64,000 nucleotides of DNA from a virus (Duplodnaviria; Heunggongvirae; Uroviricota; Caudoviricetes): IMG/VR virus record IMGVR_UViG_3300008262_000052, one strand, 5' to 3'. Numbering within the stretch: position 1 is the first letter of the stretch; each line of letters opens with the position of its first letter. Below the pieces are notes generated by a model, which was given only the letters and a program-made list of their open reading frames with translations, was not told the origin of the DNA and did no database searches. A program made the translations under genes and the position numbers. Below, in pieces: positions 16,801 through 48,943 of the stretch.

Positions 16801-17182
16801 AATTACTGTAATTACACCTCCGGATGTGTTATACAATGATGTATTATCAATATTAGTAATACATCCTAGAGATGAACTTAAATCTATACTCAACAACATT
16901 TTAATAAACGCTGTAGAACCAGTTAATTTGTTTTTATACGAATTAAAAGCCGATCACGATATTGAATGGTTATTGGCACAGGTTAAAAGATGTGATGTAG
17001 TTGTTCTAGATTTAGATAGTACAGAACCATTTACATACGAATTCGCATCTTATATTATTGCACAGCCAAATACTTTTTACTTGACAAGTGACAATATTAC
17101 ACCATATAATTTATTAAGCAAGAACAGAATTTACGATTTGTCTTGGTTAGAAACAGTTTTAAACAGAGGAAATAATGAGTAA
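16793..17182 (+). CDS. hypothetical protein
   Basis: ATGA-coupled ORF. Confidence 0.45.
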   Translation: MNEITVITPPDVLYNDVLSILVIHPRDELKSILNNILINAVEPVNLFLYELKADHDIEWLLAQVKRCDVVVLDLDSTEPFTYEFASYIIAQPNTFYLTSDNITPYNLLSKNRIYDLSWLETVLNRGNNE

Positions 17183-17402
17183 ACATCAATCTACTGACAG
17201 TGCAAAAGGATTTCGAGTTGAGGTCTATGGCAATGATATTTCAAAAGCATTGCGTAAACTTAAAAAGAAATTAGCCGATGATGGCATTTTTCAAGAACTC
17301 CGTAATCGCGAAGCCTTTGAAAGCAAAGGCACCAAGCGTCGCAAAGCAAAAGAAGCCGCAAAGCGCCGCTATAAAAAAGCACAAGCAAACCGAGAGGTTT
17401 GA
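17175..17402 (+). CDS. rpsU: ribosomal protein S21 (bS21) homologue
   Basis: 75 aa. ALRKLKKKLADDGIFQELRNREAFESKGTKRRKAKEAAKRRYKK parallels bacterial S21 (ALRRFKR...GVLAE.RRREFYEKP...RKRAK..A.KR). Confidence 0.8.
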   Translation: MSKHQSTDSAKGFRVEVYGNDISKALRKLKKKLADDGIFQELRNREAFESKGTKRRKAKEAAKRRYKKAQANREV

Positions 17403-17411
17403 TATACAAAC

Positions 17412-18536
17412 ATGCGGTTAGAAACCGACGTTAAATTAGATTATAAGGACGTTCTTATTCGTCCTAAAAGAAGCACACTAGGCAGTCGTAGTGAAGTAGA
17501 CCTAGAACGTAGATTTAGTTTTAGAAATTACGTTCCGAGATTTCCAGATAACATCGAAGATTACCACTATCGTGGCGTTCCTATTATGGCCGCTAACATG
17601 GACGGTGTTGGCACATTTGACATGGCTGACACACTAGCAAAATCCGGTACATTTACTTGCCTTGTTAAAACATACAGTGCTCAAGAACTTATAGATTTCT
17701 TTAAAGGCAACAGCATTCGTACTGAACATGTTGCTATGAGCATTGGCGTTAGCAATGCAGACTACGACAAATTTTGCAAGGTTTATCTTAATGTTAGCGA
17801 ACAACTAAAGTATCTGTGTATTGACGTTGCAAATGGTTACACAGAAACATTTGTAAATCATGTACGAAATATTCGCGAACGTTATCCACATATTGTAATC
17901 ATTGCTGGTAATGTTGTTACTGGCGAAATGACAGAGGAATTAATTCTTGCTGGAGCAGATATTGTTAAAGTCGGCATTGGTCCTGGCAGTGTTTGTACTA
18001 CTCGTATACAAACTGGGGTCGGCTATCCCCAACTATCCGCCATCATCGAGTGTGCGGATGCTGCTCATGGTCTTGGTGGTCATGTTATTGCCGATGGCGG
18101 TTGTACTTGCCCTGGCGATGTTGCTAAAGCCTTTGCTGCTGGTGCTGACTTTGTGATGCTGGGCGGGATGCTGGCCGGACATGATGAAGGCGGTGGTGAA
18201 GTCATTGCCAAATACTACCGAACAAATCAACTACAGCACGATGGTGTAAATCTTGTTGTAGAAGAAAAACGGTTTGTCAAGTTCTATGGTATGAGCAGTA
18301 AAGCAGCAAACGACAAACATTTTGGCGGCTTGAAAGATTATCGAGCGTCAGAAGGCAGGGAGGTGTTAGTGCCTTACAGAGGTCCTGTGAACAACACAGT
18401 ACAGGAACTGCTTGGCGGTATTAGATCTACCTGCACATATGCAGGCGCTAAGACATTAAAACAACTTAGCAAATGCACAACCTTTGTTCGTGTAACACAA
18501 CAATTTAACGGTGTGTATGCGAACAATGGTAAATAA
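17412..18536 (+). CDS. guaC: GMP reductase
   Basis: Near-collinear with bacterial GuaC: [82 protein letters not shown]. Confidence 0.92.
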
Positions 18537-18589
18537 AAGTGGAACGCCACTTGGGTTCCAGAAGATCTTGCTTTAAAAGGAGATAAAAA

Positions 18590-19039
18590 ATGACAAGACT
18601 TACAACTCTAGACTTACCTTCATTTCACCGTGCCACAGTTGGCTTTGATAGAATCTTTCATGATTTAGAACGTCAATTTGCTAACTCACAAAGCACAAGT
18701 AACTATCCTCCATACAACGTTGCAGAAATCAATGAGAACGAATGGATGATCTCTATTGCAGTTGCGGGATTTGGTATGGACAACCTCGACATTGTTCTTG
18801 ATAAGAACACGTTGACTGTTGAGGGTACACCACCAAAGGGTGACGAGGAAGTAAAGTATCTACACAAAGGAATTGCTGGTCGCGTATTCCGTAGAGCCTT
18901 TACACTAGCCGAGCATGTCGAAGTTGCCAATGCAACACTCGAACTTGGTATGTTAAACATTCATCTAGTGCGAAATGTTCCAGAAGCATTGCAGCCTAAG
19001 AAGATTGCTATTGAAATACCAAATCTAATTCAAGGCTAA
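18590..19039 (+). CDS. small heat-shock protein (Hsp20/IbpA family)
   Basis: Alpha-crystallin domain pattern NYPPYNV.E..ENEW.ISIAVAGF...L.I.L....L.V.G.. Confidence 0.85.
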   Translation: MTRLTTLDLPSFHRATVGFDRIFHDLERQFANSQSTSNYPPYNVAEINENEWMISIAVAGFGMDNLDIVLDKNTLTVEGTPPKGDEEVKYLHKGIAGRVFRRAFTLAEHVEVANATLELGMLNIHLVRNVPEALQPKKIAIEIPNLIQG

Positions 19040-19046
19040 AAAGTCT

Positions 19047-19068
19047 AGGGGGAGTGATGAGCTCCCCC
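19047..19068 (+). other. GC hairpin between hsp20 and clpS
   Basis: GGGGGAG-TGATGAG-CTCCCCC, a 7-bp perfect stem with no T-run. Confidence 0.4.
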
Positions 19069-19087
19069 ATCAACAAAGGAAAGAAAT

Positions 19088-19396
19088 ATGAGCACCGCAG
19101 TTGACATAAAAATTGATGAAAAAATTAAAGTAGAAGTTAAAGAACCTAGTTTATACAAAGTTATTTTTCTAAACGATGACAAAACACCAATGGAGTTTGT
19201 TGTTAGTTTATTGATCGAACTATTTAAACATTCTGAAAACACTGCACAAACACTAACAATGAAAATTCACGAAGAAGGTAGTGGAGTAGTAGGTGTTTAT
19301 AGTTACGAAATTGCAGAACAAAAATCTCTCGAAGCAACTAGCCTATGCAGAGACAACGGATTTCCTCTACGCATTAGAGTTGAAGAGGAACTATGA
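19088..19396 (+). CDS. clpS: ATP-dependent Clp protease adaptor ClpS
   Basis: SLYKVIFLNDDKTPMEFVV.LL.ELF closely matches the ClpS core ([25 protein letters not shown]). Confidence 0.85.
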   Translation: MSTAVDIKIDEKIKVEVKEPSLYKVIFLNDDKTPMEFVVSLLIELFKHSENTAQTLTMKIHEEGSGVVGVYSYEIAEQKSLEATSLCRDNGFPLRIRVEEEL

Positions 19397-19920
19397 GCAA
19401 ACTAAAAGAACTCACTTGGGAAGTACATCAACGAGCAGAGCGTACTGAGTTCGCTTGCAAACTACTTAAAGGTCTAACCCCTGAAGAGTATCACAAATAT
19501 CTCTACAATCAATATATGATTTATTCAATACTGGAAGATGCTGCTAAATCATTAGTACCCGAACTCAAGAGTATAAACAGAGCAGAACGAATCTACGCCG
19601 ATCTTAGAGAAATTGAAAAAGAATATGCTATCGGCACAACATCTGCACTACTGATGCCGGTTGTACGTGAATATGAACGTCATGTTATAACTTTAGACAG
19701 GCAAGGAATACTTGCACACATATATGTTCGTCATTTTGGCGATATGTACGGCGGGCAAATGATTAGAAAACGCAATCCTGGTTCGGGCACCATGTACGAT
19801 TTTGATAACGTAGAAGAACTCAAAGCAACTGTTAGATCTATGTTAAACGACTCAATGGCAGAGGAAGCAAATCGTTGTTTTGAATTTGCAATGCAGTTGT
19901 TTGTTGAGTTAGATGAGTAA
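19393..19920 (+). CDS. hemO: heme oxygenase
   Basis: ILAHIYVRHFGDMYGGQMIRKR matches the HO signature ([21 protein letters not shown]). N-terminal helix with conserved His (EVHQRAERTEF). 175 aa, a short phage-type HO. Confidence 0.75.
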   Translation: MSKLKELTWEVHQRAERTEFACKLLKGLTPEEYHKYLYNQYMIYSILEDAAKSLVPELKSINRAERIYADLREIEKEYAIGTTSALLMPVVREYERHVITLDRQGILAHIYVRHFGDMYGGQMIRKRNPGSGTMYDFDNVEELKATVRSMLNDSMAEEANRCFEFAMQLFVELDE

Positions 19921-21085
19921 ACTTTTTGTTCATGTTAGATTACCGTACTTTAGTGATGTAATGGATGATGCACCACAATATGAAGAATGCTTTTCTGACA
20001 TGCAAATATTTTTAAAAAACATAAAGTCTCGTGGAATAAATGAACAAATTGTATTTGTTTTAAATCATATGTGGGAAATAACATTTGTTAAAGATTTAAA
20101 CTTTTTACACAACTTTTTTAAAAACAAACTCAAAAATTACAATGTAGATTTTTTTATTTTATATAGTGTATGTGCAGATGATCAAGATGATCTTCCAAAA
20201 AATATTATAAAATACAATTTTTTCCAAAGCAAGACAGTACATGCAACAACCATCAACAATCAACAAACAGCAAAAAAATGGGATAAATCCAAGTTTAGAG
20301 GATTGTTACTTACAGGAAAAGCGCATAAGCCTCAAAGACTAATACCATTAAAATTTTTATTAGATAATAACTTGTTAAATGAAATTGACATGGAATGGAG
20401 TTTCTTTTATTATAAAGAATATGCAGTAGATATTAAGAGATTTTTAAATATCAACAATGGCGAATTGCAACACTTTGTTTCTTCTGCTTCAAGAAATCCA
20501 GACAACATCAAAGTTTCACAGTACGGAAATCTTTTTAGTTATGATGGATTTCCCTACAGTCAGAATCTATATTCGGATACTTCATGGTCACTAATTTCCG
20601 AAACAGGAGCAAACAGATCTGTCTTATGGATTACTGAAAAAACATATAGAGCCATAATAAATAGACATCCGTTTATATTGTTTGGTCAACCCGGATCAGA
20701 AGAACACTTAAGATCTCAAGGATTTAAAACATTTGAATATTGTTTTCCAATAAATTATGACAACATAACTTCCAACGAACATCGATTCGAAGCAGCATTT
20801 AAAAACATTTGTCATATAAGAGAAAACTGGAAAAATTTAGATTTTGAGAGAATAAACGACGATGTAAATCACAATTACAATGTTTTATTTAATAGTGTTG
20901 TAAATGAGCAAAAACAACTAATTAAAAAATTAAAATTCAATGACGGGGATAAAATTTGTGACATTCTACTTTATGATCTTTTTCACTTCGGCCATGTCTT
21001 CGGGGCCGATGCTGAGGTATCTACTGTAGAAGACGTTGTAAACGGAAAAAAAAGTATAATTTATTATTATTGGGATATCAGATGA
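19913..21085 (+). CDS. hypothetical protein (very AT-rich, Asn/Phe/Lys-rich)
   Basis: 390 aa ORF overlapping the hemO stop. No recognisable motif. Confidence 0.5.
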   Translation: MSKLFVHVRLPYFSDVMDDAPQYEECFSDMQIFLKNIKSRGINEQIVFVLNHMWEITFVKDLNFLHNFFKNKLKNYNVDFFILYSVCADDQDDLPKNIIKYNFFQSKTVHATTINNQQTAKKWDKSKFRGLLLTGKAHKPQRLIPLKFLLDNNLLNEIDMEWSFFYYKEYAVDIKRFLNINNGELQHFVSSASRNPDNIKVSQYGNLFSYDGFPYSQNLYSDTSWSLISETGANRSVLWITEKTYRAIINRHPFILFGQPGSEEHLRSQGFKTFEYCFPINYDNITSNEHRFEAAFKNICHIRENWKNLDFERINDDVNHNYNVLFNSVVNEQKQLIKKLKFNDGDKICDILLYDLFHFGHVFGADAEVSTVEDVVNGKKSIIYYYWDIR

Positions 21086-21765
21086 CAGTATGGAATTACT
21101 TAATTGACTGGCAAGAAGAAGTTGTTGATAACTTAGACTCAGTCGCAGAACGTGTTAATGAACCTGGGATGGACAGATTCAATCAACCCGGCTGGATCAA
21201 TCTTGTTTGGGAAAGTGGCTGGGCAAGACGCATACATCTAGATGTAGTCGATGCCAGAGAAACAAAAGGTCTCTGGATGATGCACTTTTGTATTTTTCCA
21301 CACCTGGACAATTCTGGACCAATCTACGGGCTTGATGTAATTGCAGGCAAAAACAAAGTCACTGGATTCTTTCACGATCTATCTCCTACTGTCGACAACA
21401 ACCATGCTATGATTGAACAGTTTGGTGATGTTCTAAAAGATCACTCTTGGAAGAAAGAACGCGAGTTACCTGAATGGGCGCAGGCAATTTTTAGCAAACA
21501 CATGTTGGCAGTGGGCAATGTTAACACCGAAGAAGAACTGCTTAAACTTCTACAATTGTCGTGGGCTAATCTAGAAGATTACGGTACTGAAATACAAAAG
21601 TATGCAGGCACTTGCACAGCAGAATTGGGTAAGACTGCACAAAATCGCTATGCATATTATCAAAAACAAAATCCACATACACCACGTACTATGACAGCAT
21701 TAGGGCTCAACGAAGAAGATGTAAGAGCATTCGTACAAGAATGTTTGTTTCCAGACATTGAATAA
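21070..21765 (+). CDS. pcyX: ferredoxin-dependent bilin reductase, PcyA family (phage PcyX-like)
   Basis: [37 protein letters not shown] aligns with PcyA [63 protein letters not shown] aligns with [26 protein letters not shown]. Sits directly after the heme oxygenase. Confidence 0.85.
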   Translation: [231 protein letters not shown]

Positions 21766-21789: not shown

Positions 21790-23259
21790 ATGCGTTATAG
21801 TGATTTTAAATTAGTTGAAGGCCTACTGGGAAAACCCACCGACGACAAATACCTTCCAGCGGTAAACCAATTACTCAAAGATCCAAATCACAAATTTCCA
21901 GTAGGAAAGTCGGGCGAAAAGGGCTCGTTGATGCCTTTGCCAGGACAGCAAGTGTCTTCTAGACAAGATAAAATAGTTGGTTATATGGTCCAAAATACGG
22001 ATCAAAAAATAAGTGATGCGTATCTTCAATCTCTAAAGGACCTAGCTCCTGAACAGGTTCAAGCAGAACTAAAAAAACAGGTTCCTATTACACTTATGCA
22101 GATCGCAGACGCAAACATTCCTAACGCAAGTCAACCTGCACAACAGGAACTTAAAGCTAGAAAAATTTCTGTTCTAGTTAGTACACTGTTTAAATCAGAT
22201 GAAATAAAACTAGCCGCTGGAAAAAGTGTATCCGATAAAGAAAAGTATCAAATTAAACCCAGTCAAATTTTTAATGACGAGAGATTTCCTGCGTCACAGG
22301 TTTTCAATGAAGTAACACAAAATAAAACTTTGTCACAATCTGATATCGGAAAGTATATTATCGAAATGGCAAAAGAAATTCAAGCAGGAAAGTTTCCAAG
22401 TCTAAACAACGTTCCTGATGAATTTCAAACTGCAATTAGAGATTATGCAGGAGAATATCTAGGTGTGTTAGCCTTAATTAAAGGTATTGCTAACTTTCCC
22501 ACAAGAGATCAATGGTTTGAGCATTTAGGTGTAAACAACTTAGAAGGAATTTATATAAACTTTCCACAGCAAAGCAACTTTGCTCTAGGTGATAGCATAG
22601 GTAGTTTTGAAAATGCCAACACCGGAAATATGATCTTAATCAGCAGCAAGGGCGGCAGCAAGGGCGCTCCACCTAGTTTAAACAATTTAAAAATTCCTGA
22701 AAATCTAGAAAAAAGCAACGAATATAGAGTAGAAGTTGATGTAATCAAAACTTTACAATCTTCGGATGCATTAAAGCAGCCGTTCCTAGGGTTGAATAAA
22801 ATTTTTGAATATAATCCAGATGCAATTGATCCATTGTTTAGACAAGCCTTACCGATTACAACCGAAGATCTAGCACTAATAAAACAATTTACTAACAGTC
22901 GCCTTTACAACAAGAGAGATGTAAGTGAATTATCTGATAAATTTAGAAAAATTGTTGGACGATCAAACTTTGAAAGAATTAAACTCGAAGCCACTCCGGG
23001 AGGTATAATTCATTATTTGTTTACTAAAGCAATAATTGAAGCAGTAAATAAAAATAATGCATTACCAAATTTTGAACCAATGGCAAGAGAAATATTGCAA
23101 AAAAACTTTATTCAAATTTTTGCTAGACCCAAAAACGGCAAACTTACATTTGATGTATTGTGGCCAAATAAAGAAATGGCCACAGGTAAAATAGAACTTT
23201 ATAGTAAAGCAAGTTCTACAGATCCTGGCAAAGCCAAATTAAGTTTCAGCGTAACTTAA
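21790..23259 (+). CDS. hypothetical protein
   Basis: 489 aa ORF. No motif recognised. Confidence 0.5.
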   Translation: MRYSDFKLVEGLLGKPTDDKYLPAVNQLLKDPNHKFPVGKSGEKGSLMPLPGQQVSSRQDKIVGYMVQNTDQKISDAYLQSLKDLAPEQVQAELKKQVPITLMQIADANIPNASQPAQQELKARKISVLVSTLFKSDEIKLAAGKSVSDKEKYQIKPSQIFNDERFPASQVFNEVTQNKTLSQSDIGKYIIEMAKEIQAGKFPSLNNVPDEFQTAIRDYAGEYLGVLALIKGIANFPTRDQWFEHLGVNNLEGIYINFPQQSNFALGDSIGSFENANTGNMILISSKGGSKGAPPSLNNLKIPENLEKSNEYRVEVDVIKTLQSSDALKQPFLGLNKIFEYNPDAIDPLFRQALPITTEDLALIKQFTNSRLYNKRDVSELSDKFRKIVGRSNFERIKLEATPGGIIHYLFTKAIIEAVNKNNALPNFEPMAREILQKNFIQIFARPKNGKLTFDVLWPNKEMATGKIELYSKASSTDPGKAKLSFSVT

Positions 23260-23480
23260 TTATTTTACTGCCTTCTCGTCGTGTTCGCACCTGTGGCAAA
23301 CATCGTTACGACAATGTTTGCAGTCTTCGTGACAGTGACATTCGTGTCCGCAATTTTTGCATTTAGGTTTAGGTGCTTTCACAACATTCTCCTCTATACG
23401 GTATTTATTACCCGATCTATAATACGACTACAAAATTTTTTTGCCTCTTACAGTAAATATATAGTGGAGGCGCTGTCTTA

Positions 23481-23945
23481 ATGAAAAAAATCTCGATAGT
23501 CATGTTGATGCTATTACCGACATTTGCAAATGCAGAATTAGTTCATACATTTAAAAATCCAAGTTTTAGCGGTGAAGGGTATAGTAATCATGTGTTGGGT
23601 ATTGAACAACTAGGGTTCAATAGACAAAAAGATATTGACGATGCTATTGCTGCTGAACAAGAACGCATAGAGCGAGAATTAGAAAACTCAACACTCAACA
23701 AATTTTTACGCAACATAGAAAGTAGAATATATGCTACACTATCCAAGCAGATGGTGGATGCTATGTTCGAGTCTTGTGCTGATGAAACAGGAGCAACTTG
23801 TCCGACCAGTGGTACAACTGAAATAGAAGGCAGTACTATTAGTTGGAGCAAAGACACTGTTACCGGTAGTATTACTTTGGAGGTTGTAAGCGATGAAGGA
23901 ACAACCACTATTACTATACCTGGCGCAGGGGAGTTTAACTTTTGA
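23481..23945 (+). CDS. csgF: curli assembly protein CsgF homologue
   Basis: Signal peptide. Mature N-terminus HTFKNPSFSGEGYSNHVLGIEQLGFN matches CsgF [26 protein letters not shown]. Confidence 0.7.
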   Translation: MKKISIVMLMLLPTFANAELVHTFKNPSFSGEGYSNHVLGIEQLGFNRQKDIDDAIAAEQERIERELENSTLNKFLRNIESRIYATLSKQMVDAMFESCADETGATCPTSGTTEIEGSTISWSKDTVTGSITLEVVSDEGTTTITIPGAGEFNF

Positions 23946-24721
23946 TTAAAGCAGCATTAGTAGGATTGTTATTTCTAACTGGATGTGTGTCGATAGAAGA
24001 ACAAGCCAGTGAAATCATAGAAGAACCGAGAATTCAAGATAATCCCTTGCGTGTAGAACTTGCAAATGTTCCTGCACTAAATGGACCTAAGATGACTATC
24101 GGTGTTTACAGTTTCACAGACAAAACCGGGCAACGAGAGCCAGCAGATAACTTTAGCAGTTTGAGTAGTGCAGTAACACAAGGTGCAGAAGTTTGGGTAA
24201 TAGATGCACTGATGCAGGTAGGCAACGGCAGTTGGTTTGAAGTTGTAGAACGTGTAGGCATGGACAATGTAATTGCAGAACGTCAACTTATACGTCAAAC
24301 AAGAGAAAATTATTTAGACAATCCTGATCCATTGAATCCTATGCAATTTGCAGGGTTGATACTAGAAGGCGGAATAGTGGGATATGACAGTAACGTAGCA
24401 ACAGGAGGAACCGGAGCACGTTACTTTGGAATAGGCGCAGGATCGGAGTACAGAGTAGATACTGTAACAGTTGCAATGCGTTTAGTAAGTGTTAGCACAG
24501 GAAGAGTGCTAATAAGTGTGGCTACTGAGAAAACTATAGCTAGTCACAAAACTGGTGCAGATGTATTTAAGTTCTTAGACATGAGCACCAAGGCACTGGA
24601 AATCGAGAGTGGATTTAGTGTCAACGAACCTACCAACTATGCTGTGAGGGCAGCAATAGAGGCAGGAATAATAGAACTAATATACGAAGGAGCTCGTAGA
24701 GAGCTGTGGAGTTTTAAATGA
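23942..24721 (+). CDS. csgG: curli secretion channel lipoprotein CsgG homologue
   Basis: Lipobox LTGC. IGVYSFTDKTGQ. GYDSNVATGGTGARYFGIGAGSEYRVDTVTVAMRLVSVSTGRVLISVATEKTI is near-identical in pattern to E. coli CsgG GYESNVKSGGVGARYFGIGADTQYQLDQIAVNLRVVNVSTGEILSSVNTSKTI. Confidence 0.9.
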   Translation: MIKAALVGLLFLTGCVSIEEQASEIIEEPRIQDNPLRVELANVPALNGPKMTIGVYSFTDKTGQREPADNFSSLSSAVTQGAEVWVIDALMQVGNGSWFEVVERVGMDNVIAERQLIRQTRENYLDNPDPLNPMQFAGLILEGGIVGYDSNVATGGTGARYFGIGAGSEYRVDTVTVAMRLVSVSTGRVLISVATEKTIASHKTGADVFKFLDMSTKALEIESGFSVNEPTNYAVRAAIEAGIIELIYEGARRELWSFK

Positions 24722-24733
24722 GGGCAATAAAAA

Positions 24734-25426
24734 ATGAAAAAAATAATAATAGGGGCCTTGTTTGTACTAGTTAGTTCTGCGGCCTTGGCTAACGAAATCT
24801 ACATACAACAAATAGGGGACAACCTTGCATTGACTGTTAGTCAAACCGGTTCTGGCAACAAGATCGGCGACCTGTCAACAACTGCACCTGCCTTGCTTTC
24901 AGGTGATGATATGACATTTGATATTACACAAAACGGCGATTATAACGTTATAGCAGCAACTATTAAGGGCAATACATATACAGGTGACTGGATATTCAAC
25001 GGGGACAGCAACACAGTTGATTTAACCTGCGATATAACAAACGGCGCAAACTGCGAAATTGTAACAGTTGACATTACAGTTAATGGAAACAGCAACGACT
25101 TTAGCGTATATATTGGTGAAAATAAAGTTACAGATAACCTTGTAGCAGAATTTACCATCGACGGCGACGGCAACGTTATTTTAGCCAACTTGGATGCAAC
25201 CAATGCTGATGTTACATTTACCATTGACAATAGTTTAGCAGCCAGCGGCAACACTGTTACCATAGATCAAGATGATGCAGGCGGTGTAAACGGACACAGT
25301 ATTACCTATGATTTAACAGGTGGCGGAAATAATATCAACATAACACAAAGCGGATTAACGGACAAGACCGTTAATGTAACATCAACGGCCAACGACGGGA
25401 CTGTAACAATTACACAGACTGATTAA
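24734..25426 (+). CDS. secreted curlin-repeat-like protein (candidate amyloid subunit)
   Basis: Signal peptide. First repeat IYIQQIGDNLALTVSQTGSGN fits the curlin repeat S-x5-Q-x-G-x2-N-x-A-x3-Q. Further degenerate Q/N/G repeats (DITQNGDYNVIAATIKGN). Confidence 0.55.
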   Translation: MKKIIIGALFVLVSSAALANEIYIQQIGDNLALTVSQTGSGNKIGDLSTTAPALLSGDDMTFDITQNGDYNVIAATIKGNTYTGDWIFNGDSNTVDLTCDITNGANCEIVTVDITVNGNSNDFSVYIGENKVTDNLVAEFTIDGDGNVILANLDATNADVTFTIDNSLAASGNTVTIDQDDAGGVNGHSITYDLTGGGNNINITQSGLTDKTVNVTSTANDGTVTITQTD

Positions 25427-26520
25427 TGCTGAAATATATTATACCATTGCTGTTGATAGCTAATACCGCATATGCCAATGTAGGCGAAATAGCAACCATC
25501 GATGGCAGTGGTATTGTTAAGCGTGAGTCCACAGAGATACTCGGAGAACAAGGTGTAGGACTCGAAATGCAAGATACAATTGCTACTGCCAACGGTCGTA
25601 TGCAATTACAGTTTGCGGACGATACTCGTGTTGATGTTACTGAACACAGCCGCATGGTCATTGATGAGTTTGTGTATGATCCTAACAGTGGTACTGGTGA
25701 ATTGAGTATGCGAGCAACGCTAGGTGCTGTTCGTTATGCCAGTGGCGCTATTGCTAAGAACAGCAGACAAAATGTTAATATCGAAACACCAAGTGCAACT
25801 ATCGGTGTACGTGGAACAGACTTTATGATGATTGTAGACGAAATCGGCGGCAGTATGGTTACACTGTTGCCAAGTTGCAACACTGCTGGCATGTGCGTGG
25901 TTGGCGAAATAACTGTTGAAACAGACGAAGGTATAGTTATAATGAATCAAGCCTTTCAGACCACAGTGGTTGCTCATAACGGTATGGTACCTAAACCACC
26001 TGTAATATTAGAACTGCCCGAAGACATGCTTCGTAGTATGCTGATTGTTAGACGAGTTGATCCTTATGACGAAGCAGCAGAAGATGCACAGCCAGCAGTT
26101 GATTTACTAGACATAGACTTTTTGGCTTTTGATGAATTAGACAAGGATCCGCTTGTGGAGGGTATTAAAAATATATGGGTAACAGACTTGGATACAAACA
26201 CATATCTCAACGAAGTGTTTGTAGATCAACTGACAGCAGTGATGAAAGAAGTGATGCAAAAGTTATTAAGCGAACTAGACACACAAAATACTGCGTTTTT
26301 TGAAGAAAAGTTTTTAGGATTGGATCCTGAAACAGGAATATTTTATGACGAGGTTCCGCCTAATAATATTTTTAGAAGAAGCGAAAATTCTCATATGATT
26401 GATTTAATGTTAAGTCAAGGATATGGGTATACACTGGGTGTGGTTCAAAATGGATTTAGTATATACGGATATAGGATAGGTGTAGGAAATAATACAATTA
26501 ATATCAATCAACAGGAGTAA
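25426..26520 (+). CDS. secreted FecR-domain protein
   Basis: Signal peptide. GEIATIDGSGIVKRE...TIATANGRMQLQFADDTRVDVTEHSRMVIDEF...ETPSATIGVRGTDFMM matches the FecR domain pattern (...GT.F). Confidence 0.5.
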   Translation: MLKYIIPLLLIANTAYANVGEIATIDGSGIVKRESTEILGEQGVGLEMQDTIATANGRMQLQFADDTRVDVTEHSRMVIDEFVYDPNSGTGELSMRATLGAVRYASGAIAKNSRQNVNIETPSATIGVRGTDFMMIVDEIGGSMVTLLPSCNTAGMCVVGEITVETDEGIVIMNQAFQTTVVAHNGMVPKPPVILELPEDMLRSMLIVRRVDPYDEAAEDAQPAVDLLDIDFLAFDELDKDPLVEGIKNIWVTDLDTNTYLNEVFVDQLTAVMKEVMQKLLSELDTQNTAFFEEKFLGLDPETGIFYDEVPPNNIFRRSENSHMIDLMLSQGYGYTLGVVQNGFSIYGYRIGVGNNTININQQE

Positions 26521-26523
26521 CAA

Positions 26524-26874
26524 ATGGATTTAATATGGGCAATGGCATTAAGCAGTCATTTAGGAATGGAGGGAGATTACAATAGTCTACATCCGCATTT
26601 AAGATTACAAGAAAATAATTTTATCGCAGGCGCATACTACAACAGCGAAGAAAGGATTAGTCTTTACGGAGGTTATAGACTAGAACCAACTGAAAAAACA
26701 GGTATCGAGTTTACTATAGCAACAGGCTATGAAGAACTTGGTGCAATTACTCCGTATGCTAGAGGCACTTACGATATGGGAAAGGCAAGATTTTTTGTTG
26801 CGCCAGGTTTTGAAAAAAACAACGACGAAACTAATATAGGCGTGGTTTTAGGAATAGAACTACAACTTAAATAA
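26524..26874 (+). CDS. hypothetical protein
   Basis: 116 aa, beta-rich, ending ...GIELQLK. Confidence 0.4.
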   Translation: MDLIWAMALSSHLGMEGDYNSLHPHLRLQENNFIAGAYYNSEERISLYGGYRLEPTEKTGIEFTIATGYEELGAITPYARGTYDMGKARFFVAPGFEKNNDETNIGVVLGIELQLK

Positions 26875-26902
26875 CATAACAAGATCTCATGGAGGGCAAA
26901 AA

Positions 26903-28912: not shown

Positions 28913-28914
28913 TG

Positions 28915-28941
28915 TAAAAACAAGATAGGCTCTTCGGAGCC
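28915..28941 (+). terminator. rho-independent terminator with UUCG tetraloop
   Basis: GATAGGCTC-TTCG-GAGCCTATC followed by TTTCT. Confidence 0.75.
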
Positions 28942-31603: not shown

Positions 31604-31618
31604 CAAATAAAACGTTCG

Positions 31619-38279: not shown

Positions 38280-38517
38280 AACAATTGAAACATATGTAGA
38301 CGTTGACGTAGATCTCGATGAGTTCGACGACAACGAAATAGTGGAAGAATTAAAAAACCGAGGTTATACTGTGTTAGCAGAATCCGCAGTTGATGTGGCG
38401 TTAAGCGACGAAGATCTTGAATATCTACTTACACTGCTTGACAAGCAAGACCGTAATTGGTATAATAATCGTGTAAGAGATAAAATTTTTGATCTACGTT
38501 ATCAGGGTAAACGATGA
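38263..38517 (+). CDS. hypothetical acidic protein
   Basis: 84 aa ORF. Confidence 0.4.
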   Translation: MKMAVKTIETYVDVDVDLDEFDDNEIVEELKNRGYTVLAESAVDVALSDEDLEYLLTLLDKQDRNWYNNRVRDKIFDLRYQGKR

Positions 38518-44844: not shown

Positions 44845-45067
44845 AATGATCAAAGTGGAAATGCGGAACGAGACTGCGAGTAACCACTATAAACAAACTC
44901 AAATGGGCGTGCTTGAGGATGAAACGACTGGTGGTAACGGCGGAGTAAAAATCTAGCGTAGCAAATTCTATTTTCACATGCACAAGCAGAATTGGTGTAA
45001 ATCCGGCTCGGATCTCACTTACGTGGTGGGTCTCCTAACTTGGGGTTGTGGAGTTGAAAATAGAATT

Positions 45068-45151
45068 GGTCGGTGGCCCGGATGGTAAGGGGATGGACTG
45101 CAACTCCATAGCACTGCAAAGTAATGTGTTCGATTCACATACCGACCTCCA
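45068..45151 (+). tRNA. tRNA-Cys(GCA)-like, atypical
   Basis: Acceptor GGTCGGT/ACCGACC. Anticodon arm ATGGA-CTGCAAC-TCCAT. T-arm ATGTG-TTCGATT-CACAT. Encoded CCA. The 14-nt variable region is unusual for Cys. Confidence 0.35.
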
Positions 45152-45206
45152 AACAATGATGTGGTAGCACAACGGTATTCGAATCCAGCCTACATCACCA
45201 AACTAT

Positions 45207-45283
45207 GGGACATTGGACTTCTTGGCGAAGGTCGCCGCCCTTTCAAGGCGGAGAAACGGGTTCGAAACCCGTATGTCCTACCA
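45207..45283 (+). tRNA. tRNA-Glu(TTC)
   Basis: Anticodon arm CCGCC-CTTTCAA-GGCGG as in alphaproteobacterial tRNA-Glu. T-arm ACGGG-TTCGAAA-CCCGT. Encoded CCA. Confidence 0.7.
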
Positions 45284-45289
45284 AAATAA

Positions 45290-45374
45290 GGGAGAGACGC
45301 CTCAAGGTGAGGCAGTGGACTGTAACTCCATCGCGGCAACGCACGGACGGGTTCGATTCCCTCCTCTCCCACCA
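45290..45374 (+). tRNA. tRNA-Tyr(GTA)
   Basis: Anticodon loop CTGTAAC. Long variable arm (GCG-GCAA-CGC). Acceptor GGGAGAG/CTCTCCC. T-stem with 2 mismatches. CCA encoded. Confidence 0.65.
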
Positions 45375-45380
45375 AAATAT

Positions 45381-45456
<76 letters not shown>

Positions 45457-45501
45457 TAATTGTTTTTTTGTTATAAATATTCTAGTATTTAGGAGAACAT
45501 A

Positions 45502-45945
45502 ATGAAAAAAATACTTTTAACTGTAGCACTGATTGTTGCTGCATCCACTGCATTTGCTGAAGTAAAAAAGCCAACTGGTGTAGCACACGACTTAAAAATT
45601 CTACGTGTAGTAGATGGTGATACAGTTGAATTTGAAGCAAAGTTCTTGCTAGATCCACTTCCGAAGAAACTATCACTTCGTGTATGGGGCGTAGATACAC
45701 CTGAAAAAGGTGGCAGAGCAGAATGTAAAAAAGAAGGCGACATGGGTGATGCTGCAAGTAAATTTACAAAAGATTTAGTTGCAAAAGCCAAGACTACTCA
45801 AATTGTATTTTATGAGTGGGACAAGTTCGGCGGCAGAGTGCTAGGTGATGTTCTTATCGACGGTAAGAGCCTAACACAGATGCTTATTGAACAAGGTTAT
45901 GCTAGAGAATACTACGGCGACAAAAAGCAGTCGTGGTGTAACTAA
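45502..45945 (+). CDS. secreted staphylococcal-nuclease (SNase/thermonuclease) homologue
   Basis: Signal peptide. VVDGDTV. RVWGVDTPEKGG matches the SNase catalytic block (RLxGIDAPE). TATAAATA box at 45472 upstream. Confidence 0.75.
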   Translation: MKKILLTVALIVAASTAFAEVKKPTGVAHDLKILRVVDGDTVEFEAKFLLDPLPKKLSLRVWGVDTPEKGGRAECKKEGDMGDAASKFTKDLVAKAKTTQIVFYEWDKFGGRVLGDVLIDGKSLTQMLIEQGYAREYYGDKKQSWCN

Positions 45946-45964
45946 CAAACATACAACTATTAAT

Positions 45965-46042
45965 GCACCGGTAGCTCAGCCAGGTTAGAGCCGCGGACTC
46001 TTAATCCGAAGGTCGTGGGTTCAACTCCCACCCGGTACACCA
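45965..46042 (+). tRNA. tRNA-Lys(CTT)
   Basis: Anticodon loop CTCTTAA. T-arm GTGGG-TTCAACT-CCCAC. One acceptor mismatch and a 27:43 mismatch. CCA encoded. Confidence 0.7.
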
Positions 46043-46101
46043 ATTCAAGGAACAAAAATGAAACGAAAACGTAACAAAGAAGAAAGCGACAAACGAAACG
46101 T

Positions 46102-46177
46102 GGACCGGTAGCTGAGGTGGTTTTAGCACCCGACTTTTAATCGGAGTACGTGGGTTCGAATCCCACCCGGTTCACCA
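46102..46177 (+). tRNA. tRNA-Lys(TTT)
   Basis: Anticodon loop CTTTTAA. T-arm GTGGG-TTCGAAT-CCCAC. 27:43 C:A mismatch. CCA encoded. Confidence 0.75.
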
Positions 46178-46278
46178 TTGGTTTGATGATACACTGAGTG
46201 GCATTTAGGCCGCCACATAAAATAAACCTATCGGACCAGAAATGGTATTGGTCAGTGTATCTTCTAAACAATGAATAT

Positions 46279-46353
46279 TGCCTCTTAGCTCAGTGGTAGA
46301 GCAATCCCCTGATAAGGGATAGGTCACTAGTTCAAATCTAGTAGGGGCAACCA
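46279..46353 (+). tRNA. tRNA-Ile(GAT)
   Basis: Anticodon arm ATCCC-CTGATAA-GGGAT. T-arm ACTAG-TTCAAAT-CTAGT. CCA encoded. Confidence 0.75.
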
Positions 46354-46360
46354 GAATAAT

Positions 46361-46435
46361 GCCGTGCTTGGTGTAAGGGTAGCATACCGCACTGTGACTG
46401 CGTCGGAATAGGTTCAAATCCTATACACGGTACCA
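46361..46435 (+). tRNA. tRNA-His(GTG), irregular acceptor/D region
   Basis: Anticodon loop CTGTGAC. T-arm ATAGG-TTCAAAT-CCTAT. Discriminator A and no G-1, as in many alphaproteobacteria. Confidence 0.55.
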
Positions 46436-46441
46436 AACGAT

Positions 46442-46517
46442 ACTTCCGTAGCTCAACTGGAAGAGCGCCACCCTACGAAGGTGATTGTTGCAGGTTCGAG
46501 TCCTGCCGGGAGTGCCA
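46442..46517 (+). tRNA. tRNA-Arg(ACG)
   Basis: Anticodon arm CCACC-CTACGAA-GGTGA. T-arm GCAGG-TTCGAGT-CCTGC. CCA encoded. Confidence 0.8.
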
Positions 46518-46565
46518 AAGTTAAACTGTACTATTTCTATCTAGACCTATTCTATAAATATTTTT

Positions 46566-47084
46566 ATGATGAGGGCTATGTTACTAACAGTACTGTTACT
46601 ATCAGTATCTGCTTGTGCAAAAATTCAATTGTTTACTACTTCACCGACACCGCCAGAACCATTGGTTGCTGCAACAGAAAAACTAGGGTGGAGTGAAAAG
46701 AGTCATAGAGCAGAAATAAAAGATTTTATCGGTGTTGATCCAGTTGCCACTGAATGGTGTGCTGCATTTGTAAATGCAGTGCTTGCAGAAACTGGATTAC
46801 CTGGGTCTGATGAATATGCAGAACATCCTCTACTGGCAAGAAGTTTTCTTGATTGGGGCGTAGAAGTAGACGAACCAGAATCAGGTGATGTTGTTGTGTT
46901 TAAGCGTGGCAATGCCAATTGGAAAGGTCATGTTGGATTCTTTGTAACTTCAACCTATCACAATGGTCAAGAATACTATTTGGTGCTTGGTGGAAATCAA
47001 GATAACAGTGTTAACTTTAGTGCATATCCTGTTAGAAAATTGCTAGCAGTGAGAAGATACCCATTCGAAGACGAATTAGAATAG
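46566..47084 (+). CDS. lipoprotein CHAP/NlpC-P60-like peptidoglycan hydrolase (TIGR02594-like)
   Basis: Lipobox LSVSAC. Candidate catalytic Cys in EWCAAFVNAVL and His in GHVGFFV. GDVVVFKRG. Confidence 0.55.
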   Translation: MMRAMLLTVLLLSVSACAKIQLFTTSPTPPEPLVAATEKLGWSEKSHRAEIKDFIGVDPVATEWCAAFVNAVLAETGLPGSDEYAEHPLLARSFLDWGVEVDEPESGDVVVFKRGNANWKGHVGFFVTSTYHNGQEYYLVLGGNQDNSVNFSAYPVRKLLAVRRYPFEDELE

Positions 47085-47360
47085 GCTGAGTTCAGTGTTT
47101 CTCGAGATAAACTGTTCCAGCAGATCATCGGCCCGCCCCACCGCGCCGCCTCGGCAAACGTCAACATGCGTGGCAAGAAAACTAAACATATAAGCTGCTG
47201 GTGCTGTATATGCGTTGACATGCGTGAAAAGATCATGTATAGTATACACAAGAAATAAATAAGAGATAAAGAATAGGTGGCGGCAACCACCGTGGCAACT
47301 GACCTTTTGTTGCAGTAACTTCGATGTCGTTGTCGAGATATAGAAAAGTGCTGCAATGAT

Positions 47361-47430
47361 CGTGTGTATCGTCTAGAGGATAGGACGCCGGCGTGGAGTC
47401 GGAGACAAGGGTTCGAGTCCCTTTGCACTT
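47361..47430 (+). pseudogene. degenerate tRNA-like element (tRNA-Glu-type scaffold)
   Basis: ATCGTCTAGAGGATAGGAC...AAGGG-TTCGAGT-CCCTT mirrors the D and T arms of alphaproteobacterial tRNA-Glu. The anticodon and acceptor stems do not pair properly. Confidence 0.3.
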
Positions 47431-47451
47431 TGTCAGTTGTCAGAAATTTAG

Positions 47452-47527
47452 CCTTCGTAGCTCAACTGGAAGAGCAAGGGATTTCTACTCCCTAGGTTGT
47501 GGGTTCGACTCCTGCCGGGGGCACCAA
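47452..47527 (+). tRNA. tRNA-Arg(TCT)
   Basis: Anticodon arm AGGGA-TTTCTAC-TCCCT. D-arm GCTC-AACTGGAA-GAGC. CCA encoded. Confidence 0.8.
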
Positions 47528-47539
47528 ATAAATACTACG

Positions 47540-47615
47540 CTTCCGTAACTCAGCGGTCAGAGTGCCACGCTTCGAACGTGGTGGTCGAGGGTTCGAATCC
47601 TTCCGGGAGCTCCAT
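47540..47615 (+). tRNA. tRNA-Arg(TCG)
   Basis: Anticodon arm CCACG-CTTCGAA-CGTGG. T-arm GAGGG-TTCGAAT-CCTTC. CCA encoded. Confidence 0.75.
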
Positions 47616-47629
47616 ACAAGAGGAAAGAA

Positions 47630-47848
47630 ATGAAAAAGTCAGAGTATCTAAAACCTATTCCTACTCGAATTCTAGTTTCGTGGCGCGAAAAGGCCGAAAC
47701 TGGTGGTGGAGGAACATATACTGCATTTGATTATAAAACTGCAAGAGCAATGATTTTTTCATTGCCTGAACTTGATGCAGAACTAATCACACGAGACGAT
47801 TTTGTAAAAAAAGAAACAAAATCAAAAAAAATACGCAAAGCCGCATAA
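47630..47848 (+). CDS. hypothetical protein
   Basis: 72 aa ORF with GGGG stretch. Confidence 0.4.
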   Translation: MKKSEYLKPIPTRILVSWREKAETGGGGTYTAFDYKTARAMIFSLPELDAELITRDDFVKKETKSKKIRKAA

Positions 47849-47858
47849 GGGCATAAAA

Positions 47859-48509
47859 ATGACACTGACAAGACTAATTGGCGACATTCATGGACTGGTT
47901 AACGATTATAAAACCTATGCCATCGACCGGTTCGAAGGTCCTACAATCCAAATCGGCGACTTCGGTGTAGGTTTTGGTCAAAGTGACTACTGGCACGAAA
48001 GCATCAACGACTATCACACTGCTGGCAATCATCGCTTTATCCGTGGCAACCACGACAATCCTTCTAAGTGTAAGGAGATGAGCGGTTGGATCAAAGACGG
48101 TACTGTTGAAAACGATGTAATGTTCATCGGTGGTGCTTGGAGCATTGATAACCCCGATGCACCTCCTGGTTGGTACAAGCGTACTGCTGGTTATGATTGG
48201 TGGCCTGAGGAAGAACTCAGCCAAGAAGAACTAGAGCGTATGATTGACATTTACAGCACTGTTCGGCCACGTGTGATGATCACACACGATTGTCCAAACA
48301 CTGTCAGTCGAGAAATGTTCTTCAACAGTGGTTTGCTCAAAGGACCCGAATATCCTAACCGTACCAGTGCTGCATTTACACGTATGTTGGCTATTCATCA
48401 GCCTGAAGAATGGTACTTTGGACATTGGCACAAAACCATGCAGTACAAGTACGGACGTACCCATTTCCATTGTATTGGCATTCTTGACTATGTGGATGTA
48501 GAACTTTAA
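47859..48509 (+). CDS. metallophosphoesterase (calcineurin-like Ser/Thr phosphatase family)
   Basis: GDIHG ... GDFGVG ... GNHRFIRGNHD motif series. Confidence 0.7.
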   Translation: MTLTRLIGDIHGLVNDYKTYAIDRFEGPTIQIGDFGVGFGQSDYWHESINDYHTAGNHRFIRGNHDNPSKCKEMSGWIKDGTVENDVMFIGGAWSIDNPDAPPGWYKRTAGYDWWPEEELSQEELERMIDIYSTVRPRVMITHDCPNTVSREMFFNSGLLKGPEYPNRTSAAFTRMLAIHQPEEWYFGHWHKTMQYKYGRTHFHCIGILDYVDVEL

Positions 48510-48510
48510 C

Positions 48511-48539
48511 TTGACAAACACCTACACTAGCAGTATATT
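48511..48539 (+). promoter_or_regulatory. sigma70-like promoter TTGACA-N17-TATATT
   Basis: Upstream of the 48569 gene. Confidence 0.55.
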
Positions 48540-48568
48540 GTTAGTGTAGGTTTTTTATTGAGGACAAA

Positions 48569-48943
48569 ATGGAACCAAGATTTTACATCGTTATGCGTCG
48601 CGACCTGTGGGATATGAACCCAGGTAAGGCTATGGCACAGGCTGCCCATGCTCAGGCAGACTTCGACTCACAGATTCCCGACGTTTTTGAATTTCGTGAT
48701 GCTGTAATAGCATGGCGTGAAGATCGCAACTTCGGTACTACACTAGTTTTGCACGAGCCCATGGATGTCATGAGCAAGATCTCAATGAATGTTGCACACT
48801 GGGGATTTACTACAGATCCTACATATCCATACCGCAACTACTACGGTGATGTGTTTACTCGTAGTGAAGTTACCTGCATGTGGGTGTTTGTTTATAAAGA
48901 AGAAGAACTGGAATACATGCGTCAATTTGCACTGCACAAATAG
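48569..48943 (+). CDS. peptidyl-tRNA hydrolase, PTH2-family-like
   Basis: FYIVMRRDLWDMNPGKAMAQAAHA matches the PTH2 signature V.R.DL.M..GK.AAQ..HA. Confidence 0.55.
   Translation: MEPRFYIVMRRDLWDMNPGKAMAQAAHAQADFDSQIPDVFEFRDAVIAWREDRNFGTTLVLHEPMDVMSKISMNVAHWGFTTDPTYPYRNYYGDVFTRSEVTCMWVFVYKEEELEYMRQFALHK

Follow-up and report, generated by a model that had tools for sequence, protein, structure and literature searches.

A lineage-conserved set of translation and RNA-maintenance genes in a jumbo phage

Why would a tailed phage carry a ribosomal protein, an initiation factor, a tRNA-modifying enzyme and some two dozen tRNAs? The question is raised by a 64,000-nt stretch of the Caudoviricetes record IMGVR_UViG_3300008262_000052, the whole of which is called the window here. 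A first-pass annotation, made from the letters and open reading frames (ORFs), had placed ribosomal protein bS21, initiation factor IF-1, a TilS-like lysidine synthetase domain, a PTH2-type peptidyl-tRNA hydrolase, the adaptor ClpS and about 26 tRNAs at 17175-48943, and had read them as a coordinated take-over of initiation, decoding and ribosome rescue. The translation and RNA-maintenance package is real and lineage-conserved, and that interpretation is partly supported; judged from sequence, the label 'coordinated take-over' is overstated. A transfer-messenger RNA (tmRNA), a GOLLD RNA and a T4-type tRNA-repair block had been overlooked. The reading preferred here, with a probability of roughly 0.6, is that of a lineage-conserved package by which a jumbo phage of an alphaproteobacterial host keeps the host translation apparatus working on AT-rich phage messages.

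The S21 to TilS block and its tmRNA

The features that carry the argument for conservation are the following.

12444-12891, plus strand: two-piece (permuted) tmRNA of the alphaproteobacterial type (Rfam RF01849, 95.6 bits, gathering cut-off 50, full model)
17081-17110, plus strand: perfect sigma-70 consensus TTGACA-18-TATAAT, 12/12 match, about 65 nt upstream of S21 (a consensus match only)
17175-17402, plus strand: bS21 homolog of 75 aa, extended at its N terminus by about 13 residues (PF01165, TIGR00030, phrog_21469)
18590-19039, plus strand: Hsp20 small heat-shock protein (PF00011, 50.3 bits), a proteostasis neighbour of ClpS, in the same place in the related contig L168
19088-19396, plus strand: ClpS N-degron adaptor homolog, 102 aa (PF02617, 97.1 bits, cut-off 23)
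33195-33410, plus strand: IF-1, 71 aa (PF01176, TIGR00008)
37680-38279, plus strand: minimal TilS of 199 aa, consisting solely of the PP-loop catalytic N-terminal domain (sister contigs have the same start called)

Conservation of this block is evident from two diverged relatives. On L168, a 323-kb contig, S21, Hsp20, ClpS, heme oxygenase, bilin reductase, a MazE-like gene, IF-1 and, further on, TilS follow one another within 6.5 kb on one strand. On L169 the same S21 to TilS order takes up 6.2 kb, and 3.4 kb upstream of S21 lies a tmRNA of the alpha type (111 bits); the adjacency of S21 and ClpS is conserved in both relatives. Proteins of the two relatives are 48-80% identical to those of the window, where the same order is spread over 21 kb because unrelated genes, about 15 kb in all, have been inserted, among them GuaC and a segment of ~11 kb (curli pore, FecR, CHASE2-cyclase). 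Since S21, ClpS, IF-1 and TilS are co-linear in diverged relatives, the set appears to have been inherited within the phage lineage and not recently captured from a host, a choice that the first-pass annotation had left to phylogenies.

The tmRNA, overlooked by ARAGORN, was found by an Rfam scan of the whole window and is recognized by a second model as well (RF04321, 89.2 bits, cut-off 47). Its tag ORF at 12804-12848, read from the sequence, encodes ANENFAPSEFALAA followed by a stop, ending in ...ALAA, and its acceptor stem is tRNA-Ala-like (GGGCCUG/CAGGUCC-ACCA, with G3.U70). Between the window and L169 the middle of the tag differs, yet ALAA is kept through synonymous changes, G3.U70 is kept and three acceptor pairs have changed in compensation. 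This constraint, together with the conserved block order, points to maintenance by selection; at the level of compared sequences it shows that tmRNA, S21, ClpS, IF-1 and TilS are held together by selection in one phage lineage. A TTGACT-17-TATAAA sequence precedes the tmRNA, at 12445.

The proteins themselves are identified with varying closeness. For bS21, both models score above their cut-offs (PF01165 54.1 bits against 27; the equivalog TIGR00030 50.6 against 28.95) and the best PDB matches are bS21 chains throughout (E=2e-5), in agreement with the earlier call. Binding to the 30S platform near the anti-Shine-Dalgarno region is a hallmark of bS21 proteins in general. A tblastn search of GenBank phages with S21 gave no match, a result that carries no information when a protein is short or divergent; the PHROG profile does match. 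Full-length IF-1 likewise stands where it had been placed, at 81.0 bits for PF01176 (cut-off 30.2) and 100.5 for TIGR00008 infA (cut-off 61.15), with residues 3-70 on profile positions 1-68 of 69. Residues 1-70 align gap-free with E. coli IF-1 (9fco_I; 43/70 identical, 61%; E=1e-25), and the description 'almost superimposable' was a fair one. Its 120 nearest relatives are 76-89% identical, each on a contig of at most 323 kb; other IF-1 genes of GenBank phages are only 52-63% identical, no nearer than bacterial IF-1. Among 50,697 GenBank phage records IF-1 was found in 35, TilS in 35 and ClpS in 34, some of which look like bacterial contamination.

ClpS, found at 19088 as first called, is clear as a family member. 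Its best solved relative is ClpS2 of A. tumefaciens (4yjm; E=7e-21, full length), with which the pocket segment LNDD.TP.EFV and a downstream His are shared; every NCBIfam ClpS equivalog is below cut-off, and the protein is therefore left without a curated subfamily. Its listing in a translation toolkit does not hold, ClpS being a proteolysis adaptor and not a translation factor.

That the five proteins of the first-pass annotation are instead unrelated, separate recent captures of host genes, passenger 'morons' with no joint role, is improbable. The genes are scattered through 32 kb that also hold genes of metabolism and of the envelope; the same region contains fdhA (described below), whose capture is clearly recent; and the 52-63% identity of GenBank-phage IF-1 suggests several independent captures across phages. 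Against these points, order and tight clustering are kept in relatives at 48-80% identity, the genes share the GC content of the phage, and IF-1, TilS and PTH2 each have a large family on phage-sized contigs.

Several neighbours of the block may be recorded here. A GMP reductase/IMPDH-family gene (17412-18536, plus strand; PF00478, 248 bits) lies between S21 and Hsp20, and is absent from that place in L168 and L169. Heme oxygenase (19393-19920) and a ferredoxin-dependent bilin reductase (21082-21765) accompany S21 and ClpS in the window, L168 and L169, with a 390-aa ORF between the two in the window. In the region 21790-32594, CsgF and CsgG are encoded along with a CHASE2-adenylate/guanylate cyclase, a protein with a FecR domain and several beta-rich proteins that are secreted, as well as three genes on the minus strand. 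At the matching place L168 and L169 have no such region, which marks it as an insertion splitting the S21 to IF-1 part of the block. A second perfect (12/12) sigma-70 consensus is found at 38438-38466, within the ORF after TilS.

tRNA islands, the short TilS and the RNA-repair genes

The tRNA genes fall into two clusters, the second with an embedded GOLLD RNA.

45068-47614, plus strand: tRNA cluster A, with Cys, a CAU remnant, Glu, Tyr, Phe, two Lys, Ile(GAT), His, Arg(ACG), Pro, Arg(TCT) and Arg(TCG)
45158-45200, plus strand: remnant of an elongator-type tRNA(CAU), a 32-nt deletion having taken the anticodon arm
45290-45371, plus strand: tRNA-Tyr(GTA), type II (Rfam tRNA 33.8 bits; missed by ARAGORN; Tyr in sister loci)
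59680-63710, plus strand: tRNA cluster B, with Asn, Val, Trp, Ser, Asp, two Gly, two Thr, two Leu, Gln, Pro and an initiator-type CAU tRNA, GOLLD embedded
59762-59850, plus strand: dead fusion of tRNA-Ser(gct) and tRNA-Ala(tgc) by an 81-nt deletion, both genes being intact in L012, L013 and L015
62665-63126, plus strand: GOLLD RNA (RF02032, 191.7 bits, gathering cut-off 150, full model, positions 1-416)
63326-63401, plus strand: initiator-type tRNA(CAU), identical in four sister loci

ARAGORN reports 26 tRNA genes, every one on the plus strand. The earlier count of about 26 thus stood as a number, though one of them is inside GOLLD, one Tyr had been missed, and 15 of the 26 lie at 59.7-63.7 kb, beyond the region to which the tRNAs had been assigned. 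With corrections from Rfam and the sister contigs the window has 26 intact free-standing tRNAs, one tRNA-like element in GOLLD and two remnants. GOLLD sits between tRNA-Gly(gcc) and tRNA(CAU), and its internal tRNA-like element (62728-62801) is what ARAGORN called tRNA-Ser(tga). The 32-nt and 81-nt deletions inactivate three tRNA genes (CAU, Ser-gct and Ala-tgc) in this strain relative to sister strains; two sister loci (L160, L161) have an intact 75-nt tRNA(CAU) gene in the same slot as the CAU remnant. At that slot L162 has a different CAU tRNA, 78% identical to an Ile2-type tRNA of phage MIJ3.

Cluster A is interspersed with SNase and CHAP genes. It could be compared only piecemeal, all of its sister contigs being shorter than 2.6 kb: the region (45000-47700; L160-L167) occurs on such contigs in 12 assemblies, and the inserted genes vary (SNase here, PDDEXK_5 in L162). 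The region is hypervariable and breaks assemblies.

One intact CAU tRNA remains in the window, and it was considered as tRNA-Ile2, the substrate of TilS; this was rejected. The tRNA at 63326-63401 is 79% identical to E. coli tRNA-fMet as against 53-57% to Ile2-type tRNAs (the E. coli reference sequences were checked against annotated E. coli genomes). It has A11:U24, the pairs G2-C71, C3-G70 and G4-C69, and A73, as initiators do. Where an initiator has a 1:72 mismatch, U1:A72 can pair here; of the three G-C pairs of the anticodon stem there are only G30-C40 and G31-C39, 29:41 being U-A; and the 3' acceptor strand has an extra A (CCACCGCA against CCCCGCA in E. coli). For these three reasons it is called initiator-type and not a canonical initiator. 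Similar tRNAs beginning TGCGGG occur in several TilS-bearing viral contigs (L141-L143).

TilS itself is secure as far as its catalytic domain goes, as had been claimed: PF01171 gives 108.9 bits (cut-off 27) and TIGR02432 lysidine_TilS_N 114.4 (cut-off 93.6), whereas the full-length model NF007942 gives 52 against a cut-off of 606. Like the cellular enzymes, both type I (E. coli, G. kaustophilus) and type II (A. aeolicus), it has a PP-loop domain in which SGGxDS, HHxDD, RP.., D.SN... and RN.IRH align, its SGGIDS facing the SGGVDS of A. aeolicus. It aligns only with residues 25-227 of the 317-aa A. aeolicus protein and ends with the catalytic domain, lacking the C-terminal tRNA-binding part (CTD1 in type II, CTD1 and CTD2 in type I). 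CTD1 and CTD2 of cellular TilS make contacts with the body of the tRNA and with its acceptor stem, and they help the enzyme to reject tRNA-Met. TilS has been described as type I with two C-terminal domains, type II with one, and as fusions, and no form with neither is described there (PMC11947777). The place of TilS in the toolkit is accordingly a qualified one: the gene is present, but in truncated form and with its most plausible phage tRNA substrate lost in this strain.

The short form is not peculiar to the window. Among viral homologs in IMG/VR whose length could be measured, 56/56 are 196-216 aa long. A search of 1.8 billion cluster representatives (clusters at 50% identity) returned at least 198 clusters at E<=1e-30, the best 150 of them nearly all of 180-230 aa. 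In GenBank the nearest relatives (46-48% identity) are the 203-aa TilS of PA5oct and MIJ3 and those of two uncultured phages of ~640 kb. Eight viral loci have a tRNA of any kind within 1 kb of a short tilS, and in each of them it is a CAU tRNA of the elongator type, 16-71 nt away; seven distinct tRNA sequences are represented, and against a background of 10% the binomial p is ~1e-8, with loci that are not fully independent. MIJ3, moreover, has a short TilS and two Ile2-type CAU tRNAs. The comparison gives good evidence that a phage CAU tRNA would be the substrate of the short TilS. In strains without one, the minimal TilS may act on host CAU tRNAs. Tentatively, and at somewhat less than even odds, the 199-aa protein may represent a distinct, mostly virus-borne minimal class without CTD1 or CTD2, forming a two-gene cassette with its own tRNA(CAU) for AUA decoding by AT-rich jumbo phages in GC-rich hosts.

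Between the two tRNA clusters lies a group of RNA-repair genes with the PTH2-like gene among them.

47859-48509, plus strand: metallophosphoesterase at the start of the repair block (phrog_1649, 8e-34)
48569-48943, plus strand: PTH2-fold protein, 124 aa (phrog_1866, PF01981, structure model)
49465-49926, plus strand: HAD phosphatase of PNKP type (PF25109, 104 bits; phrog_415, phrog_505)
50422-50940, plus strand: P-loop kinase, polynucleotide kinase-like (PF13671, 58.4 bits; phrog_505, 1e-11)
50976-52130, plus strand: T4 Rnl1-type RNA ligase (PF09511, 89 bits; phrog_562, 2.6e-71)
52132-52491, plus strand: cREC phosphoesterase-domain protein directly after Rnl1 (DNA 99.9% identical to L015, whose gene has PF20274)

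A T4-type repair set of ligase, 5'-kinase and 3'-phosphatase, as separate genes, is thus contiguous beside PTH2. With the tmRNA, this adjoining of PTH2 to a tRNA-repair block makes the ribosome-rescue theme of the first-pass annotation stronger than could be seen at the time. On the 374-kb contig L159 a PTH2 homolog again stands beside tRNAs and HAD_SAK_2 phosphatases. ORF 52555-52902, considered as the cREC gene, has no Pfam match and was discarded in favour of 52132-52491. The sister strain L013 has, just upstream of cREC, a gene (169-558) for a protein of 129 aa that bears the C-terminal domain of ribosomal L7/L12 (PF00542, 42.8 bits); the window strain is without it.

The PTH2 call at 48569 was borne out for the ORF and the fold, although PF01981 falls short of its threshold by 0.1 bit (22.9 against 23.0, residues 5-51 only) and the NCBIfam Pth2 equivalogs are below theirs (17.9 against 126). 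From 297 homologs collected, 40 were aligned, of which 39 match PF01981 at E<=0.01 (best 1.2e-6). With this alignment as input, AlphaFold gave a confident model (pLDDT 86, pTM 0.80), whose ten top Foldseek matches in the PDB are PTH2 without exception (1rlk, 1xty, 3erj, 2zv3, 1q7s and 1wn2 among the entries; probability 0.99-1.0, TM 0.56-0.71, identity 16-23%). The structures matched include Ta0108, S. solfataricus Pth2, AF2095, MJ0051, human Bit1 and PH1539. Catalytic residues of PTH2 are the Lys of the N-terminal GK motif and a C-terminal Asp, as in S. solfataricus Pth2. The N-terminal motif R-x-D-L...G-K...A-Q..H-A aligns with Ta0108, and K20 (of the GK motif), H27 and D83 are invariant in the family. 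The family profile against PDB sequences gave one marginal match, Ta0108 (E=0.28), while the single sequence gave spurious hexosaminidase matches in its C-terminal half. A tblastn search of GenBank phages found no match, which is uninformative for divergent proteins, and the PHROG profile does match.

As modelled, the product has a PTH2 fold and is a probable peptidyl-tRNA hydrolase. It is unlikely that it shares the fold and does something else, for instance as another ester hydrolase or an RNA-end-binding repair protein. The sub-threshold Pfam match confined to residues 5-51, equivalog scores far below cut-off, 16-23% identity to solved structures, a PHROGs label of unknown function and a catalytic Asp that sequence does not place would all allow this. 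The ten best structural matches, the motif shared with Ta0108, the invariance of K20, H27 and D83, and a tRNA-centred genomic context favour the hydrolase.

Phage, host and purpose

Whether the set serves a phage at all depends on the nature of the window. Its exact proteins recur in dozens of metagenome assemblies with gene order unchanged, at least five independent assemblies share that order with fdhA and the tmRNA included, and the phage appears widespread. The longest contig with this exact IF-1 is 297 kb, and relatives of PTH2 and IF-1 are on contigs of 250-374 kb. Coding is nearly all on one strand, with many ORFans; PHROG matches include phage exonuclease, PAAR, Rnl1 and PNK families; and IMG/VR viral contigs carry relatives of TilS and PTH2. 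GC content is ~41%, against 57.6% in the FdhA-like gene. We conclude that the window comes from the genome of a jumbo phage, of 297 kb or more and with ~41% GC.

The outlying gene bears on both the host and the integrity of the assembly.

9543-12422, plus strand: FdhA-like molybdopterin oxidoreductase, 959 aa, with 2Fe-2S and 4Fe-4S domains (GC 57.6%)

Its protein is 87-88% and its DNA 80-81% identical to those of freshwater Rhodobacteraceae (Tabrizicola, Rhodobacter sp., UBA1943), whose fdhA loci have 64-66% GC against 41% in the phage; the similarity to bacterial genomes ends at the gene boundaries. It looks like a recent, fixed phage capture of a large redox enzyme. Co-capture of the adjoining tmRNA was ruled out, the bacterial homology stopping at the gene and no ssrA lying within 4 kb in eight donor genomes, and a chimeric assembly of fdhA and tmRNA was ruled out by the five independent assemblies. 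A bacterial or plasmid region, or a chimera of phage and host, is for the window as a whole a very remote prospect. It would account for the absence of capsid and terminase genes from the window, for a high-GC, host-like fdhA beside a tmRNA (a common integration target) and for the lack of any megablast match in GenBank phages for 23 kb of the window. It does not sit with five or more independent assemblies that keep the order, fdhA and tmRNA included, with fdhA homology that ends with the gene and a donor ssrA that is not beside fdhA, with one-strand, ORFan-dense coding and PHROG families on contigs of 297-374 kb, or with kin of TilS and PTH2 on IMG/VR viral contigs.

The kinship of fdhA, the alpha-type tmRNA and the closeness of ClpS to Agrobacterium ClpS2 together point to an alphaproteobacterial host of ~64-66% GC. 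The host is probably a high-GC alphaproteobacterium and most likely a member of the freshwater Rhodobacteraceae. Codon usage of phage genes was compared with that of 58 ORFs from Rhodobacteraceae loci as a proxy for the host. Codons cognate to the phage tRNAs are enriched among those that are high in the phage and low in the proxy (Mann-Whitney p=0.003). ATA is used 13.5 times per 1000 codons in the phage against 1.1 in the proxy (12-fold); of the eight most enriched codons it alone is without a phage tRNA in this strain, and it is also the single codon whose decoding calls for lysidine.

Under the preferred reading, in which the package keeps host translation working on AT-rich messages, the ~26 phage tRNAs, mostly with U34, would supply decoders of A-ending codons that are scarce in a host of 64-66% GC, and the minimal TilS would convert a CAU tRNA into a lysidine-bearing AUA decoder, acting on a phage-encoded tRNA in sister strains and presumably on host tRNA-Ile2 in this one. 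Phosphoesterase, HAD phosphatase, kinase, Rnl1 and cREC would reseal tRNAs cleaved by host anticodon nucleases, and the PTH2-fold hydrolase would release tRNA from dropped-off or broken peptidyl-tRNA. Stalled ribosomes would be rescued by the tmRNA, presumably with SmpB of the host as its partner, and their products given the ...ALAA tag for Clp proteolysis, while ClpS would shift the substrate choice of ClpAP. S21, IF-1 and the initiator-like tRNA would come into play at initiation on the 30S subunit, where they would probably favour phage mRNAs or keep their initiation going. GOLLD, in the tRNA island, is part of the same neighbourhood.

The strongest competitor to this reading, quite possible although we would not favour it, holds that tRNAs, repair enzymes and PTH2 are mainly a counter-defence against host anticodon nucleases and not mainly a compensation for codon usage, with S21, IF-1 and tmRNA merely maintaining late translation. 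A complete T4-style repair set between the tRNA clusters, adjoining PTH2, speaks for it; the same interpretation has been given in the jumbo-phage literature (PMC7824862), and the L159 homolog of PTH2 is again beside tRNAs and HAD_SAK_2 phosphatases. The tRNA set, however, is significantly skewed to phage-enriched codons, and TilS answers a problem of codon supply. The two accounts are compatible, and both may hold.

Several points weigh against the preferred reading itself. The host is inferred indirectly, and fdhA could come from a donor other than the host; in the case of the Melnitz phage, the type of a phage tmRNA need not match the present host (PMC9004378). Were the host to have ~40% GC, the codon-compensation argument would be weaker. 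CTD1 and CTD2 of cellular TilS aid catalysis and the rejection of tRNA-Met (PMC11947777), and since this strain has no intact phage candidate for tRNA-Ile2, its TilS may have been left without a phage substrate, or may be in decay. The initiator-like tRNA, with its bulged acceptor stem, may be non-functional. Support for PTH2 comes from the modelled fold and the N-terminal motif only, the equivalence of D83 to the catalytic Asp being left unplaced by marginal or spurious sequence matches. A gene for SmpB was not seen, either in the window or across ~18 kb of flanks, and the unrelated genes that stretch S21 to TilS over 21 kb mean that co-expression is not evident.

Other observations concern the remainder of the window and its flanks. 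A PAAR-motif protein (6930-7220) and an Hc1-like histone H1-type protein of 59 aa (7831-8010) are encoded near NrdAB-glutaredoxin genes. A 263-aa protein (13414-14205, plus strand) with a signal peptide and a C-terminal ...SFNF resembles a beta-barrel outer-membrane porin, has no Pfam match, and is kept between tmRNA and S21 on all sister contigs. Up to 10 kb past the window, L012 carries a ClpP-family protease (14823-15440), a QueD-like PTPS (16747-17313) and a UvdE homolog (18320-18814), as well as another tRNA-Leu(taa). ClpP, ClpS and the ...ALAA tag of the tmRNA may form one proteolysis theme.

Known systems and the meaning of the set

That a phage-encoded IF-1 and PTH2 are much less commonly reported, as the first-pass annotation had it, is only partly true: IF1, S21, PTH2, ClpS and TilS are all in print (PMC7162821, PMC7824862, PMC3622015, PMC6892783). 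[quoted passage not shown] Those phages resemble the present one in IF1, S21, tmRNA, many tRNAs, tRNA modification and ligation and genomes of >200 kb, the L7/L12 likeness being to the sister strain, and the role proposed, redirecting or sustaining host translation, is alike. Their description makes no mention of peptidyl-tRNA hydrolase or lysidine synthetase; in contrast to them, the window did not reveal any aminoacyl-tRNA synthetases, release factors, IF3, S1 or SmpB, and here there is a conserved co-linear block.

The repair genes have a close counterpart in jumbo phages, where PTH2 with RNA ligases, kinases, HAD phosphatases and cRec, plus ClpS, was reported in 2021 by Iyer et al. (PMC7824862), Pth2 of Klebsiella phage RaK2 having been reported in 2013 (PMC3622015). 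Rnl1-type ligase, polynucleotide kinase, HAD phosphatase, cRec and an archaeo-eukaryotic-type PTH2 are shared, and the system is read there as repair of cleaved tRNA with ribosome rescue. The family in the window differs from the known jumbo-phage PTH2 in being very divergent, with PHROGs listing it under 'unknown function', and its kinase and phosphatase are separate genes where those of T4 are fused as Pnkp.

Pseudomonas aeruginosa, the host in the case of PA5oct and MIJ3, is a high-GC host. TilS was reported in these phages in 2019 (PMC6892783), and they share with the present one a short TilS (203 aa, 46-48% identity), ClpS, Ile2-type CAU tRNAs, an initiator-type tRNA and the character of a low-GC (31%) jumbo phage. 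No IF-1, PTH2 or S21 match was found in them, the PTH2 and S21 negatives being by tblastn. Neither the truncated architecture of TilS nor its linkage to tRNA(CAU) was remarked on in that report; the window strain differs in being without an intact Ile2-type tRNA.

Complete two-piece tmRNA with CsgGF in aquatic phages was described in 2022 by Buchholz et al. (PMC9004378). Melnitz-like phages and pelagimyophages share the alpha-type two-piece tmRNA, CsgF/CsgG and NrdAB with the window; their genomes are ~140 kb, S21 is unmentioned, and a glutamine riboswitch, a feature of those phages, was not detected in the window by the Rfam scan. That GOLLD occurs in the tRNA islands of phages, in some cases with a tRNA inside it, is established (Kretsch et al. 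2025, PMC12286853), and the present example, a full-length match to RF02032 in a tRNA island with an internal tRNA-like element, agrees with it in all that was noted. Every component thus has a precedent, and the combination is uncommon.

The phage is thus a further, well-resolved case in which almost all vulnerable steps of host translation have a phage-encoded part: supply of tRNAs, wobble modification, repair, peptidyl-tRNA recycling, rescue, initiation and the turnover of tagged proteins. The conserved co-linearity of tmRNA, S21, ClpS, IF-1 and TilS makes this block amenable to studies of expression and of ribosome binding. Of the leads, the most promising is TilS without its C-terminal domains beside a neighbouring CAU tRNA, a natural minimal system for a question raised in the TilS literature, namely how tRNA-Ile2 is told from tRNA-Met without acceptor-stem contacts. 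Discrimination by the anticodon arm alone is not known from cellular TilS. If the minimal TilS is active, the anticodon arm alone must separate tRNA-Ile2 from tRNA-Met.

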